Below the pieces are notes generated by a model. It was not told where the DNA came from. It made no database searches and worked only from the letters and a program-made list of their open reading frames with translations. Below, piece after piece: positions 17,006 through 26,432 of a stretch of DNA of 64,000 bases. Where the stretch lies: NCBI GenBank assembly GCA_963745075.1, contig CAVUWV010000008.1, forward strand, positions 480,001 to 544,000, written 5' to 3'. The position numbers and the translations under genes are program-made. Positions within the stretch are counted from its first letter, which is position 1; each line of letters starts with the position of its first letter. This DNA comes from Candidatus Hydrogenedentota bacterium. Its GTDB lineage: Bacteria > Hydrogenedentota > Hydrogenedentia > Hydrogenedentales > SLHB01.

Positions 17006-18815
17006 ATGGCTGAATCCATTCTCATCGGTCTTGCGGGGATTGTCGTATTGGGGATCGCCGCGGAGTGGCTGGCGTGGCGCATTCACCTGCCAACGATCTT
17101 CGTCTTGCTGGTTTTCGGCGTGCTGGTGGGACCTGTCACGGGGTATCTCGATCCCGACCGGATGTTCGGAGACCTGCTCATGCCGTTGGTCTCCCTGTGC
17201 GTGGCCGTGATCCTCTTTGAAGGCGGCTTGACGCTGCGGCTCCGCGAACTGCGCGCGGTAGGCGGCGTAGTGTGGCTGCTAATCACGCTGGGCGTTCTGA
17301 TTACCTGGGTGCTCGCGGCGGTCGCGGCATGGTTTTGTCTCGGGTTCGATGTTCGCTTGGCGGCGCTGCTCGGGGCCATCCTGGTGGTGACGGGGCCGAC
17401 GGTCGTCATGCCGTTGCTGGCGCACGTGCGGCCGCGGGGACGGGTTGCGTCGATTCTGAAGTGGGAAGGGATTACGGTCGATCCGGTGGGCGCGACGCTG
17501 GCCGTGCTGGTGTTCGAGGCGCTCATGGAGCATCCCGGGGGCGGCGCCACACAAGTATTCGTACTCGGCGTGGTGCGGACGTTGGCCATCGGATTTGTAC
17601 TCGGGGGGGGCGGTGTCGTCTTTCTCGTGGTCGTCCTGCGCAAGCAGTGGATTCCAGAACACCTACACAGTCCGATTGCGCTAGCGGTGGTGCTGGGGGC
17701 CTTTGCGCTCTCGAACGTCATTCAGCACGAGTCGGGATTGTTGACCGTGACCGTGTTGGGTGCGCTGTTGGCCAATCAGCGGTACGTGGACATCCGGCAC
17801 GTCATCGAGTTCAAGGAAAACTTGCGGGTGCTGTTGCTCTCCAGTTTGTTCATCATTCTGGCAGCGCGGCTCGACGTCGATCGGATTACGGGTCTTGGCA
17901 TGGGGAGTCTTTGGTTCCTCCTTGCGCTGATCGTCATCGTGCGTCCGGTTACCGTACTCGCTTGCACGATCGGGTCGAGTCTCGGTTGGCGCGAACGGGC
18001 GTTTCTGGCCTATCTGGCGCCGCGCGGCGTCGTGGCCGCGGCCGTGACGTTCGGTCTTCGCGCTGCGACTGGCGGAGGACGGCATCGCACAAGCCGAAGA
18101 TATGGTGCCGATCGCATTCTTCGTTATCGCGGGGCTGGTGGCGTTATACGCGGTGACCGCCCGGCCGGTGGCGTGGTTGCTGGGCCTAGCCTTGCCGGAT
18201 CCGAACGGGATCGTCATCGTCGGCGCACACCGGCTGGGGCGCGCGATCGGTATGGCGCTGAAAACCGAAGGTCTTCCCGTTCTTGTTATCGACCGCAACT
18301 GGGGCAACATCAGTGCCGCGCGCATGGAAGGCCTCGGGGCGTACCATGGCGACGTGCTTTCGGAGCACGCGTTGCACGAAACCGACTTGTCGGAGATGGG
18401 AAAGTTGTTCGCCATGACCGCCAACGACGAAGTCAACTCGCTTGCGGCGATCCACTTCAGTGAACGATTCGGAAAAGCCGGCGTGTATCAATTGGCGGTC
18501 GAGGGATCGGACGCGGAGGACGAAGGCAGCAAAGCGCCGGCGCCGTATCTGCGCGGACAGATCCTCTTCGGCCGCGAACTGGGCTATGACGAACTGACAC
18601 GGCGACTCGTCGAGGGCGCGACGATCAAAGCGACAAAGCTTAGCGAGAAATTCACGTACGAGTCGTTTCGGGAGAAGTACGGCGACACCGCGACGCCGTT
18701 GTTCGTGATGAACAACAAGGGCGCGTTGCGCATCATCACGGCCGGCGCAGATATCAGCCCCGAGCCCGGCGACAAGATCGTCGCGCTCGCCGATCGCGAA
18801 CCGGAGACCGCATGA
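17006..18815 (+). CDS. CPA1 cation:proton antiporter with C-terminal TrkA-N/RCK domain, one +1 frameshift near 18050
   Basis: ILFEGGL, VTGPTVV, WEGITVDP and APRGVVAAAV. Removing one T in GTGACGT-TCGGTC gives ...AVTSVFALRLAEDGIAQAEDMVP, in frame with ORF 18102-18815. Confidence 0.88.
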
Positions 18816-22771: not shown

Positions 22772-24388
22772 GTGCCTGACGCCTATCTGACACGCCTTGG
22801 AATCACGGAATGGATGGAATTGTACCGCAATCCGTCTTACGATGAATTATATGCCCACGAACTCGATTCGGAGTTGGACGGGCTCGAGCGAGGCGTGCTC
22901 ACCAAGTTTGGCGCGGTGGCGGTCGATACCGGCCGGTTCACGGGCCGCTCTCCCCAGGATAAATACGTCGTTGAGGAAGATGCGTCGAAAGACGAGATCT
23001 GGTGGGCGGGCTCGGACAGCCCCGGCTCCAACAACAAACGATTAAGCGGCGAAGCCTGGAATCATCTCAAGGACTTAGCCCTGAAACAGTTAAACGGGAA
23101 GAGTCTGTACGTGGTCGATGGGTTCTGCGGAGCCAATCCGGACACGCGGATGAGTGTGCGAATTGTGGCCGAGGTCGCGTGGCAGGCCCATTTCTGCAAG
23201 AACATGTTCATTCGCCCCACGGAAAATGAACTGCGGGATTTCAAACCGGACTGGACCATCCTGAACGCATCCAAGACGAGCTGCCCGGACTTTGCGAAGT
23301 ATGGTATGCGCTCCGAAGTGTTTGCGGCGTTCAACATCAAGGAACGCATGGCGGTAATCGGCGGCACCTGGTACGGCGGGGAGATGAAGAAGGGCATCTT
23401 CACCATCATGAATTATTTTCTGCCTCGCCAAGGGATTGGGGCCTTTCACTGTTCCGCGAACATGGGTAAAGACGGCGATACGGCGCTCTTCTTCGGCCTG
23501 TCGGGCACCGGCAAGACGACTTTGTCCACCGATCCCCACCGTTTGTTGATTGGCGACGATGAACACGGCTGGGACGACGACGGGATCTTCAACTTCGAAG
23601 GGGGCTGTTACGCCAAGACCATCGACCTGACGGAAGAAAACGAGCCGGACATCTACCAGGCGATCCGGCGGGACGCCCTGCTGGAGAACGTGACAATCAA
23701 CGGTTCGGGAACGGTGGACTTTCACGACACGTCCAAGACCCAGAACGGCCGGGTGTCCTACCCCTTGTACCACATTGAGAACATCGTCAAGCCCGTGTCC
23801 AAAGGCGGTCATCCCAGCAAGATCATATTCCTGGCCTGCGACGCCTTCGGGGTGTTGCCGCCCGTGGCTCGGTTGACGCTGGAACAGGCGATGTACCAAT
23901 ACCTTAGCGGCTACACGGCCAAGGTGGCAGGCACCGAACTCGGGATCACCGAGCCGCAAGCAACCTTCTCGGCTTGTTACGGTGCGGCGTTTCTGGCAGT
24001 TCATCCCACCGTCTACGCACATATTCTCGGCCGGAAAATGGCGGAGCACGGCTCCGAGGCATACCTCGTGAATACGGGGTGGACCGGAGGCAAGTACGGT
24101 GTCGGCCATCGGATGCCCCTTCGCGACACGCGCCGCATCGTGGACGCAATCCTCGATGGGAGTCTGTCGCAGGCCGCGTACGAGACGGCGCCGATTTTCG
24201 GGCTCGCGATACCGAAGCAATTGCACGACGTGGACCCGACCGTCCTGAATCCCCGCAACACGTGGAAGGACCCGGCGGCGTACGACGCGACCCTGAGGAA
24301 GCTGGCGGAAATGTTCATCAAGAACTTCAAATACTTCACGGACACGGAAGAGGGCAAACAGCTCGAGCAGGCGGGACCGCATTTGTGA
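22772..24388 (+). CDS. pckA: Phosphoenolpyruvate carboxykinase (ATP)
   Basis: [35 protein letters not shown] and NFEGGCYAK. Confidence 0.97.
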
Positions 24389-24420
24389 TCGCTGGGGTCG
24401 TTGATCTAAGAATAATGCGG

Positions 24421-24451
24421 TTGACACATATCGGGACTTTGGGTGTATAGT
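24421..24451 (+). promoter_or_regulatory. Possible sigma70 promoter upstream of the small-ORF cluster
   Basis: TTGACA at 24421 and TATAGT at 24446. The 19-bp spacer is longer than optimal. Confidence 0.35.
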
Positions 24452-24683
24452 AATGGGACTCAGGGACGTGTGGGCTCTGTCCTTCTTTCACAATGTCTCT
24501 GGATTTCAAGGGGTTGGTGCAGCAGGACCGGAGCCGATCAAGTCTGGATTACGTCGACTTGGACAGATGAAACGGTTGACGAGTATCGGGCGCGTGAAAA
24601 CGTTTTTTATGCATACCATCTATCTCCGGCAAGGTACCGGTGAACGCCGTGCAGGTTGATGAGGGCTTAACAAGGAGAATTGT

Positions 24684-24905
24684 ATGAAGCATCATAGATG
24701 TATAAGCCGCAGACCTGCGGTCGCAACCAGCGCACTTGGAGCTAAGCTGGAGTTCAAAGCCAGCCTTTCGGATTCGGTTGCAACGGGCGCGGCAACGCTG
24801 ATACAAAGCTTCACGTCCATGGTTACGACGCTATTGCTGAATGCGTTTACCTGGAACGTGAGTACCGTGGCCACGGTATATCCCGGTGTGCGGCTCGAAG
24901 CGTGA
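24684..24905 (+). CDS. Small protein (73 aa) with conserved basic leader-like motif
   Basis: SD AAGGAG about 6 nt upstream. N-terminal HHRCISRRPAVATSALGAKLE matches the next ORF. Confidence 0.75.
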   Translation: MKHHRCISRRPAVATSALGAKLEFKASLSDSVATGAATLIQSFTSMVTTLLLNAFTWNVSTVATVYPGVRLEA

Positions 24906-24944
24906 GTGGTTCGCATAAAGAGTCATAACGAAAGGAATTAATTG

Positions 24945-25211
24945 ATGCGAGGAAAAGCACCTCATACTAGGTCGGTGACTCGAAAGCCGAGCGTGGCGAG
25001 CACGGCGTTACAACTGAAGTTAGACAATTTCATTATTTACTTCGATAATGCCGTCAATCTACTCGATGCGTTTCTGGTTCAGGGTGGCGCCACGATGGCG
25101 ACTTTCGTGGGCGATCTCGCCTCGGCGCTACCGTACAAGAACGGTACCGGCGGCAGTAGTCAAGGCGGTACGGGCACCGGCGGTACGGGCGGTACGGGCA
25201 TCGGCTTGTAA
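24945..25211 (+). CDS. Small protein (88 aa) with the same leader-like motif and a Gly/Thr-rich tail
   Basis: SD AAAGGA 8 nt upstream of ATG. HTRSVTRKPSVASTALQLKLD motif and a GGTGTGGTGGTG tail. Confidence 0.78.
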   Translation: MRGKAPHTRSVTRKPSVASTALQLKLDNFIIYFDNAVNLLDAFLVQGGATMATFVGDLASALPYKNGTGGSSQGGTGTGGTGGTGIGL

Positions 25212-25367
25212 GTTTTTTATGCGGCGCCTGTGATTGAGTACCGGATCGCTTGGTAACGAACGAGCGTTTCAGTAGCAGGTGGTGCCGGCGAAGTAAAGCT
25301 GCCTGGTCGTCGCTGACGTTTGGGCTGAGCGTGGGATGATTGAACTGAACGGCGAAGGAGTCGATAA

Positions 25368-25499
25368 ATGGGATTATCTTGTTCGTTGTGTTCTACACTG
25401 TTCCTGGGATTCAGCGGAGCCAATTTGGGGCAGTATGCCTTCGGCGTTTTGTTGCCGGGATGGTGGCAGGCGATCCAAAGTTACATGATGTTCGTGTAA
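25368..25499 (+). CDS. Putative 43-aa hydrophobic peptide, below the ORF-track cutoff
   Basis: SD GAAGGAG 7 nt upstream. Translates to MGLSCSLCSTLFLGFSGANLGQYAFGVLLPGWWQAIQSYMMFV*. Confidence 0.55.
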   Translation: MGLSCSLCSTLFLGFSGANLGQYAFGVLLPGWWQAIQSYMMFV

Positions 25500-25595
25500 C
25501 GGCCCCAAGACAATTCGCACTTATTGCGAGCGGACATGTGCCGAAATGGCGCTGTCCGCTCGCGTTGTTATTTCGGGGGAGTCTACGTGAAACGC

Positions 25596-26432
25596 TCAGA
25601 TCCTCGGGCGCCCGACATCGGCGAGGACGATGCGTAGCTGATCGCAGCTTTCGAATCGCTCGGCGGGGTTCTTGGCGATCATCTTCATGATGATGTCGCC
25701 CAGGGCGTGAGGGCATTTCCGGTTGACGAGCGTCGGGTGGACGGGATCGGTGTTGACGTGACAGTAGTAGAGCTTCTGCAGGCTGTCCACCTCGAAGGGG
25801 ACTTTGCCCGCGAACATGAGGTAGAGCGTGATTCCGAGGGAGTAGATATCGCTCTTGCTGGTGGCCTTTTCGCGCTTGATGATTTCGGGGGATACGTACA
25901 TGGGGGTGATCTGCTCAGCCAAGCCGGAATCGAACAAGGAAAAGAATTTTTCCCGGCACAGGGAGTAATCGGACAGCTTGGCCATGCCCTTGCGGGTGAA
26001 CAGGATATTGGCCGGTTTCAGGTCGTGGTGTGTGAACCCCTGATCGTGGATGTACTGGAGACCGTTGCAGATTTGCGCGATGATGACGAGGCGTTCCTGA
26101 AGGTTCCAGGGGCGGTTTTCGATGTACCAGCGCAGGTCCGGACCGTCCACGAACTCCATCGTCATGCAGAGCCCTTCCTCGCCATCGATGAAGTCAAAGA
26201 CCTGCATGACATTGTGGTGTTTGAATTCTTTGAAGCGTTCGACACTTTTGGCGAAATCCCGGACCTGTCCCCGATTCTTGAAGAAATTTGCATGAAAGAG
26301 TTTAACTGCGACGACTTCGCCCTTCTGGGTGTCAATACCGCGATAGACCGTGCCGGTGCCGCCTCGGCCCAGAAGCAGGTCGAGTTTGAAGTGATAGAGC
26401 TTTAGTCGGTCCGGCAACTCCTGCTTGCGCAC
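25596..26432 (-). CDS. Hanks-type Ser/Thr protein kinase, kinase domain only
   Basis: GRGGTGTVY, VAVK, HHDLKPAN, YVSPE and SDIYSLG. Confidence 0.92.
   Translation of the reverse strand: MRKQELPDRLKLYHFKLDLLLGRGGTGTVYRGIDTQKGEVVAVKLFHANFFKNRGQVRDFAKSVERFKEFKHHNVMQVFDFIDGEEGLCMTMEFVDGPDLRWYIENRPWNLQERLVIIAQICNGLQYIHDQGFTHHDLKPANILFTRKGMAKLSDYSLCREKFFSLFDSGLAEQITPMYVSPEIIKREKATSKSDIYSLGITLYLMFAGKVPFEVDSLQKLYYCHVNTDPVHPTLVNRKCPHALGDIIMKMIAKNPAERFESCDQLRIVLADVGRPRI

Follow-up and report, generated by a model that had tools for sequence, protein, structure and literature searches.

Two Conserved Tandem Genes of Hydrogenedentota Encode Leader-Bearing Peptides That Probably Are Substrates of a Remote Maturation and Export Cassette

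Two adjacent small genes, A and B, were analyzed within a 64,000-nucleotide stretch of DNA (the window) from a Candidatus Hydrogenedentota bacterium (assembly GCA_963745075.1, contig CAVUWV010000008.1, positions 480,001 to 544,000). A and B are real genes, and they form a tandem pair that is under purifying selection. Each product begins with a short tag that probably directs it to a distant gene cluster for trimming, modification, and export. In the reading that we favor, with a probability of about 0.58, the tag would dock on an RRE, a GNAT would acylate the peptide, a CPBP protease would cut it after a PxxA motif, and an ABC-2 transporter would export the product as a membrane-bound helix. 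A and B would then be the most conserved substrates, encoded at a distance from their enzymes, of a Hydrogenedentota peptide-maturation pathway of SCIFF descent.

The pair lies between pckA and a convergent Ser/Thr kinase gene, and the features of the region are collected in Table 1. A preliminary description of this DNA had reported two adjacent plus-strand reading frames of 73 and 88 residues, each with a strong Shine-Dalgarno sequence, an N-terminal alignment of the two products, and a Gly/Thr tail on one of them. Both frames and both ribosome-binding sequences are seen at the positions listed, the N-terminal alignment holds as described, and the tail is found on B. The putative promoter does not appear in the output of a consensus scan that accepts spacers of 16–18 nt. 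A search of Rfam returned nothing at 24000-26000. Elsewhere in the window, a cation/proton antiporter-like gene (17006-18815, plus strand) has an apparent frameshift that leaves two overlapping reading frames.

Table 1. Features of the A/B region, in window coordinates
Feature	Position	Strand	Basis
ORF A, 73-aa precursor	24684..24905	+	Sequence; profile matches; pairwise dN/dS mostly 0-0.5
ORF B, 88-aa precursor, paralogue of A	24945..25211	+	Sequence; BLASTP; dN/dS 0-0.37 where not saturated
Shine-Dalgarno sequence of A, AAGGAG, purine-rich	24672..24677	+	SD score 6/7
Shine-Dalgarno sequence of B, AAGGA, purine-rich	24932..24936	+	SD score 5/7
Putative sigma70-like promoter, TTGACA-19 nt-TATAGT	24421..24451	+	Hexamers invariant in 6/6 aligned upstream regions from 5 genomes
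Putative second -35-like hexamer	24576..24581	+	GGTTGAC invariant in 6/6 aligned upstream regions
A leader (residues 1-14, closed by PxxA), predicted to bind the RRE as a strand and to be cut at its end	24684..24725	+	Family-wide motif
B leader (residues 1-18, closed by PxxA), predicted to be cleaved	24945..24998	+	Alignment; family-wide motif
Predicted mature core of A (59 aa; a single long helix with a net charge of 0)	24726..24902	+	Alignment of relatives; AlphaFold2 model
Conserved LPYK that closes the B helix, replaced by PWK in other families; candidate acylation site at Lys65	25128..25139	+	Orthologue comparison
Variable Gly/Thr tail of B	25140..25208	+	Orthologues differ in length and sequence, often Gly/Thr/Asp/Glu-rich
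Weak terminator-like hairpin and T run at the end of B	25193..25220	+	3 in the region against 1.3 expected
pckA, upstream gene for PEP carboxykinase, a landmark outside the system	22772..24388	+	PF01293; abuts the kinase gene where the pair is missing
Convergent soluble Ser/Thr kinase	25596..26432	-	Kept in 8/9 genomes lacking pair and cassette; adjacent in 7/15 pair loci

With a profile built from the first ~40 residues of 23 members, matches at E ≤ 0.01 were obtained in 117 of 135 Hydrogenedentota genomes, including 81 of the 86 of high quality; most take the form of a tandem pair, and a few near E 0.001-0.01 may be chance. The same profile retrieved 193 proteins from 1.84 billion representatives; among the 150 matches listed, 147 belong to the family and are short, and the other 3, repeats or a fusion, were set aside. 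A third match to A3 in the source genome (contig C28, E 0.005) was rejected, since it crosses a stop codon and runs antisense to other genes. Purifying selection extends across the cores: one pair of B orthologues differs by 16 synonymous and 0 non-synonymous changes over 52 codons, and one pair of A orthologues by 11 and 0 over 80 codons; distant A pairs gave dN/dS values of 0.4-0.9, near saturation. Neither A, B, nor any of the 23 aligned members matched Pfam, NCBIfam gave no match above the cut-off for A or B and only chance hits below it, and PHROGs returned single weak matches for the family. One genome (G005; loci L002 and L112 on contigs C339 and C10) holds two diverged pckA-A-B-kinase blocks, from either a duplication or a mixed bin.

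The two products align with each other over 47 residues at 36% identity (BLASTP E 2e-7), beyond chance, and are conserved paralogues. Their cores, described at first as unrelated, are covered in part by this alignment, which extends past the N-terminal motif, and each core is conserved within its own family across the order. In most families A has ~42 residues, and B has ~70 with a PWK end followed by a Gly/Thr/acidic tail; the helices of both are longer in the source genus. An AlphaFold2 model of A consists of coil (residues 1-16) and helix (residues 17-65) with a mean pLDDT of 82. The core of A has Lys21 and Lys25 as its sole lysines, and its maximum 19-residue hydropathy of 1.24 is below that of a typical transmembrane helix. 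Amphipathicity is only moderately above that of shuffled sequences (median z 0.92). The A/B cores are single-copy; cysteine occurs in the core of 1 of the 135 scored relatives and is absent from those of A and B. No structural match to the model was found with Foldseek, the ESM Atlas returned only low-score unrelated clusters for A, and nothing useful came from PDB sequence searches that took A3, a single dispersed member, or the leader profile A5 as the query.

Two variations in A were observed. In the window, the C-terminus of A (24850-24905) is unlike that of its relatives in the genus, in which an acidic, Gly-rich tail closes the protein, and a simple frameshift was not apparent by eye. 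Some A orthologues (P0038, P0067, P0121, P0142, and L052) have Gly/Thr-rich insertions right after PxxA, which suggests that a spacer between the predicted new N-terminus and the helix is tolerated.

The family-wide leader motif is M-K-H-x-[RK]-x-[ILV]-[ST]-[RKQ]-x(1-4)-P-x-x-A, a segment of 14-18 polar and basic residues. The leader had been put at ~22 residues, which is too long: the likeness among dispersed members stops at PxxA (residue 14 in A and 18 in B), indicating a leader of ~14 residues, and the ALxxKL[DE] part of the earlier consensus falls in the segment (Q/T)(T/S)xLxxKL(D/E)F that starts the conserved A/B helix. That exact consensus is found only in A and B among 142,608 six-frame segments of the source genome. 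The residue before the predicted cut is Ala in 120, Gly in 9, and Ser in 6 of the 135 scorable relatives among the 150 matches listed, the search pattern having demanded a small residue there. The Ser or Thr that had been proposed to follow the cut is a peculiarity of the source genus, and Gln occupies +1 in 108 of the same 135 relatives.

A motif scan, which had been suggested as a check, did reveal a lineage-specific set of dispersed small genes with the same leader and variable C-termini. The source genome (G000) encodes 19 short genes (32-88 aa) with a clear leader, the A/B pair included, and ~8 further genes in two protease-linked arrays that carry a weaker Arg variant of it. The dispersed cores in this genome are mutually unrelated and include hydrophobic helices, Cys pairs, and Lys/Pro-rich sequences. 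The strict leader pattern fits 17 Met starts in the source genome, 16 of which are preceded by a Shine-Dalgarno sequence (background, 10,153 of 88,352, or 11.5%), and none of the fitting starts lies in a reading frame longer than 130 aa. A DNA pattern that combines the Shine-Dalgarno sequence and the leader gave 739 matches in 129 of 135 genomes, compared with 22 for a reversed control; its specificity is incomplete, since some of these matches are pilin-like starts. A and B are the only members found that are conserved across the order, and their job is therefore likely to be basic rather than competitive.

A thermolysin-type (M4) protease is present in two copies (G000:C9:113183-116203 and C18:191691-193920; L074 and L075), each followed by an array of ~59-aa two-Cys peptides that carry the Arg variant of the leader. 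Two dispersed leader peptides are found near asparagine-synthetase-like genes (G000:C30:9996-11973 and C13:164203-166851, both on the minus strand); elsewhere, the asparagine-synthetase fold serves peptide cyclization or amidation. Three tandem leader peptides lie directly downstream of genes for an ECF sigma factor and a zinc-finger anti-sigma factor (G000:C17:124428-127537, minus strand).

The preliminary description had also predicted a dedicated protease or exporter encoded elsewhere, and a cassette with both was found on contig C20 of the source genome; the RRE/SPASM pseudo-enzyme and the GNATs that accompany them had been overlooked. Two leader-bearing members head this operon, which encodes three GNATs, a Rce1-like CPBP protease, an ABC ATPase with an ABC-2-type permease, and a protein of 640 residues that we call the scaffold (Pfam: Acetyltransf_3/4, Rce1-like, ABC_tran, and a weak ABC2_membrane_3). 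The gene order is conserved. In 10 of the 11 cassette loci fetched, which include the other taxonomic order, the first GNAT gene is immediately preceded by leader peptides; the contig of the 11th ends early. In the source genus the fatty-acid genes DUF177-plsX-fabG (G000:C20:130803-133534, plus strand) lie tail to tail with the end of the cassette, an arrangement that is not seen in the other fetched families.

The scaffold (G000:C20:133684-135606) is a CteB-like RRE-SPASM protein with a fused GNAT. Its sole sequence match in the PDB is CteB (5WGG, E 1.5e-20), to which the N-terminal RRE region and the SPASM domain align, and its model also finds CteB first by fold (E 1e-17), followed by SpeG/RimJ GNATs. 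The radical-SAM motif CxxxCxxC is absent from the scaffold in the 5WGG alignment and from 12 of 12 orthologues, in which the RRE region is conserved and the four Aux II cysteines (Cys393/396/402/425) are invariant. The score against TIGR03974 is 77.7 bits (cut-off 425), and a pairwise comparison of a SCIFF maturase with the first 130 residues of the scaffold gave a weak alignment (E 0.41). A complex prediction with scaffold residues 1-95 and A residues 1-40 (score 0.03, mark 0.32) informs neither way. Among the 120 scaffold matches listed, the named relatives are from Hydrogenedentota, except for one archaeal label on a shared MAG protein.

The SCIFF precursors offer a parallel to the leader. 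Twenty distinct precursors from 30 loci share leader positions 2-7, and their median score on the leader matrix is 11.7 bits, a value reached by 0 of 4,786 genes longer than 100 aa in the source genome. The combination of a SCIFF-like leader start and a CteB-like scaffold without the radical-SAM cysteines makes the address look inherited from SCIFF, with the chemistry replaced. His3 of CteA reportedly has a role in RRE binding, and a leader with a similar start is said to occur in the case of QhpC.

The favored pathway would comprise four steps. First, as homology to CteA and CteB suggests, the initial 7-8 residues of the leader would add a β-strand to the RRE of the scaffold, which would have lost its radical chemistry and would serve as a leader-binding platform. 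The fused GNAT and the two or three stand-alone GNATs of the RimJ/SpeG type would next add an acyl group to the core, on a lysine or on the new N-terminal amine. The CPBP/Rce1-like membrane protease would cleave after PxxA, and the ABC-2 transporter would then export the helical core with its Gly/Thr/acidic tail directed outward on the membrane or the surface. Precedents are described in the available text of the following reports: the CteA leader binds the RRE of CteB as a β-strand (PMC6231123, PMC8326336; for further background on CteB, see PMC8172795 and PMC10288494), GNATs fatty-acylate Lys or Orn in selidamides (PMC8784127), the CPBP protein MroQ removes a leader (bioRxiv 2021.12.29.473670), and daptides bring together an RRE, a membrane protease, and helical cores (bioRxiv 2023.03.08.531785). 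A broader form of this pathway is less likely: any small gene that gains the ~14-residue tag might be docked by the dead radical-SAM protein, acylated, cut, and exported, with A and B as a housekeeping heteromeric lipopeptide coat or filament and the scattered members as lineage-specific cargo. Such a general sorting route, with a former SCIFF maturase as its receptor, would resemble the lipoprotein pathway on the scale of peptides and would be assembled from RiPP components.

Lysine, a candidate acyl acceptor, is present in 135 of 135 scored cores, and exactly one distal lysine is found in 88 (Poisson expectation 49), counts that come from homologues and hence are not independent. Among 29 core clusters, some of which are false or merged, lysine follows a hydrophobic residue in 25, a modest excess over 21 for Asp, 19 for Ser, and 18 for Thr. 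A of the window has no distal lysine, which counts against lysine acylation, and Gln at +1 tends to cyclize and would fit N-terminal acylation badly. The CoA-binding loop looks degenerate by eye in GNAT1, GNAT2, and the fused GNAT, whereas one GNAT is 47-62% identical across families, which suggests catalysis. The same docking, cutting, and export could operate on unacylated cargo, with the GNATs as scaffolds or for self-protection and the bare helical cores, having a pyroglutamate N-terminus, assembled in a surface filament or coat, in line with the filament subunits proposed in the preliminary description. The degenerate GNATs, the frequent Gln at +1, and the conserved, single-copy, nearly Cys-free cores that form one long helix with variable tails would all suit such a filament. 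We nevertheless regard it as unlikely; one GNAT is conserved, as noted, pilus or secretin genes are absent beside every pair or cassette locus examined, the model of A lacks a structural match, and many dispersed cores are polar or contain cysteine, unlike filament subunits.

The favored pathway also depends on cleavage. The cassette CPBP scores 38.8 bits against PF02517 (cut-off 22.4) and has the motifs EExxxR, FxxxH, and HxxxN, the last as HxxxD in the source genus. CPBP proteins are often non-catalytic, and many work without the motifs, according to the available text of one report (PMC13559823), and members of the leader family adjoin unrelated genes. The leader could accordingly be a docking tag that is retained, with the peptides as inner-membrane or cytoplasmic regulators that bind the pseudo-enzyme, the CPBP as a non-catalytic partner, and the ABC transporter moving other cargo. 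This proposal is quite improbable, given that the protease motifs EE, H, and H-x3-N/D are kept in 11 of 11 CPBPs, that similarity among the dispersed peptides breaks off abruptly at a small residue following the Pro, as would be expected of a cut site, and that the genes for the protease, the exporter, and the GNATs are translationally coupled behind the leader peptides in the same order across families.

The presence and absence of the pair tie it to the cassette. The scaffold is found in 123 and the CPBP in 118 of the 135 genomes, and nine genomes of one family lack A/B, the scaffold, and the CPBP together. These nine contain 4 matches to the combined Shine-Dalgarno and leader pattern in total, compared with a median of 5 in each of the other 126. 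Trees allow this co-loss to be counted as only one or two independent events. Of the nine genomes, five are less than 90% complete. The correspondence has exceptions. Genome G041 has the cassette and no A/B match, showing that the pair can be dispensed with. A scaffold without an A/B match is seen in seven other genomes (66-91% complete) and an A/B match without a scaffold in two (60% and 88% complete), all of which are fragmentary or no more than 91% complete. G042 has a lone CPBP homologue without a cassette.

Processing by general machinery, either signal peptidase I at an AxA-like site or prepilin peptidase, with a merely coincidental link to the cassette, would account for the basic N-terminus and for the resemblance of PxxA to a signal-peptidase c-region. 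It is very unlikely, as the leader family and the cassette were lost together and the peptides lack the features of either substrate. In agreement with the preliminary description, neither the hydrophobic h-region that precedes AxA in Sec substrates nor the class III prepilin site (Gly at -1, Phe at +1, Glu at +5) is present in A or B. In the 135 relatives scored among the matches listed, Ala is usual at -1 and Gln at +1, and Glu is found at +5 in 20. The hydrophobic stretch of ~20 residues in a type IV pilin is also absent (hydropathy maxima of 1.24 and 1.27).

In 6 fetched genomes of the nine that lack the pair, pckA and the kinase gene are still tail to tail, 8-615 nt apart, and a leader motif was not found between them (one gap contains unread bases). 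The kinase is a soluble Hanks-type enzyme in which HHD and DYS replace HRD and DFG, and it is single-copy and 53-89% identical in 122 of the 135 genomes. It was considered as a dedicated enzyme of the system and rejected, since its retention in eight of the nine genomes without pair and cassette marks it as a neighbor and not a partner; it probably adjoins the pair by ancestral gene order and stands outside the system. That A and B are its dedicated substrate, phosphorylated at R-x-x-[ST] of the leader, is extremely improbable despite the invariant Ser/Thr in 49 of 49 aligned leaders (required by the selection pattern) and the adjacency seen at some of the 15 pair loci and in many others, because the pair and the kinase are apart in 8 of those 15 loci and the kinase is the last gene after gatA-gatB-rsfS, closing that operon on the opposite strand.

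The system was compared with several known families. SCIFF/ranthipeptide systems (CteA-CteB, ScfA-ScfB; PDB 5WGG; TIGR03973, TIGR03974) have the leader start M-K-H-[IV]-K-x-[LI] and a partner protein of RRE, TIM barrel, and SPASM domain, and they are near-universal in a lineage. They differ in having Asn rather than Ser/Thr at leader position 8 and a six-Cys core, which is absent here together with any match to TIGR03973 or another NCBIfam model. In Hydrogenedentota, the scaffold is without the radical-SAM motif and the Aux I ligands and has a fused GNAT, and there are many scattered precursors, a dedicated CPBP protease and ABC-2 exporter, and a PxxA leader end. As far as the available text describes them, daptides likewise have several precursors with a conserved leader and a hydrophobic helical core, an RRE fusion that delivers the substrate to another enzyme, an intramembrane protease, and an ABC transporter (bioRxiv 2023.03.08.531785). 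Their invariant C-terminal Thr, site-2 (PF02163) protease, and dehydrogenase, aminotransferase, and methyltransferase have no counterpart here; A ends in Ala and B in Leu, and Dmp-forming enzymes are missing from the cassette. Phenol-soluble modulins are short amphipathic helices that are exported by an ABC transporter and have neither a cleaved leader nor a maturase; the one weak match (NF033428, E 0.01) is under the cut-off.

Selidamides, in the part of the source that describes them, share GNAT maturases beside ribosomal precursors and Lys as a candidate acyl acceptor (PMC8784127), but the NHLP/Nif11 leaders that end in Gly-Gly and the LanM rings typical of them were not found here, their transporters are of the C39 type, and the GNATs of the cassette score as Acetyltransf_3/4 (RimJ/SpeG-like). 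The AgrD-MroQ pair is similar in that an N-terminal leader is taken off by a membrane protease of the CPBP family whose gene lies away from that of the substrate (bioRxiv 2021.12.29.473670, PMC10885120, as available), but here there is no thiolactone, AgrB, or adjacent sensor kinase, and the cores are long helices. A double-glycine bacteriocin would require GG at the leader end, which is absent as previously noted, and the cassette transporter consists of a bare ATPase and an ABC-2-type permease rather than a C39-peptidase protein. On the features compared, the system thus appears to work like a RiPP pathway without belonging to SCIFF, type IV pilins, double-glycine bacteriocins, daptides, or selidamides.

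A published description was not found in a literature search that covered mainly freely accessible papers. The A/B locus adds an order-wide conserved remote pair, the selection on it, its co-loss with the cassette, and the kinase as a control. As the only members found with conservation across the order, A and B would serve best as initial substrates. If the favored pathway is right, it would represent an undescribed peptide class in which thioether cross-linking has been exchanged for acylation while the leader-RRE address was kept, and one machine would serve many unrelated, scattered precursors. It would also give an uncultured phylum a conserved cell-surface or signaling trait, reconstructible in E. 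coli with seven small genes, and it would provide a very short, substrate-tolerant tag for peptide modification and export.

Intact SCIFF-like radical-SAM enzymes, found in three relatives, were considered as the maturases and rejected, as they adjoin a different Cys-rich precursor and none is encoded in the source genome. At these loci (L107:5913-8766, L108:4556-7242, and L109:5894-8652, in G032, G001, and G002), an intact RRE-radical SAM-SPASM enzyme is followed by a precursor of ~400 aa that has a twin-arginine-like beginning and an internal stretch resembling a leader, and that carries many Cys-x-x-Asp-x-Ser-Gly repeats. The system is ranthipeptide-like and separate from that of A and B, and two Acidobacteriota records contain close relatives of it.
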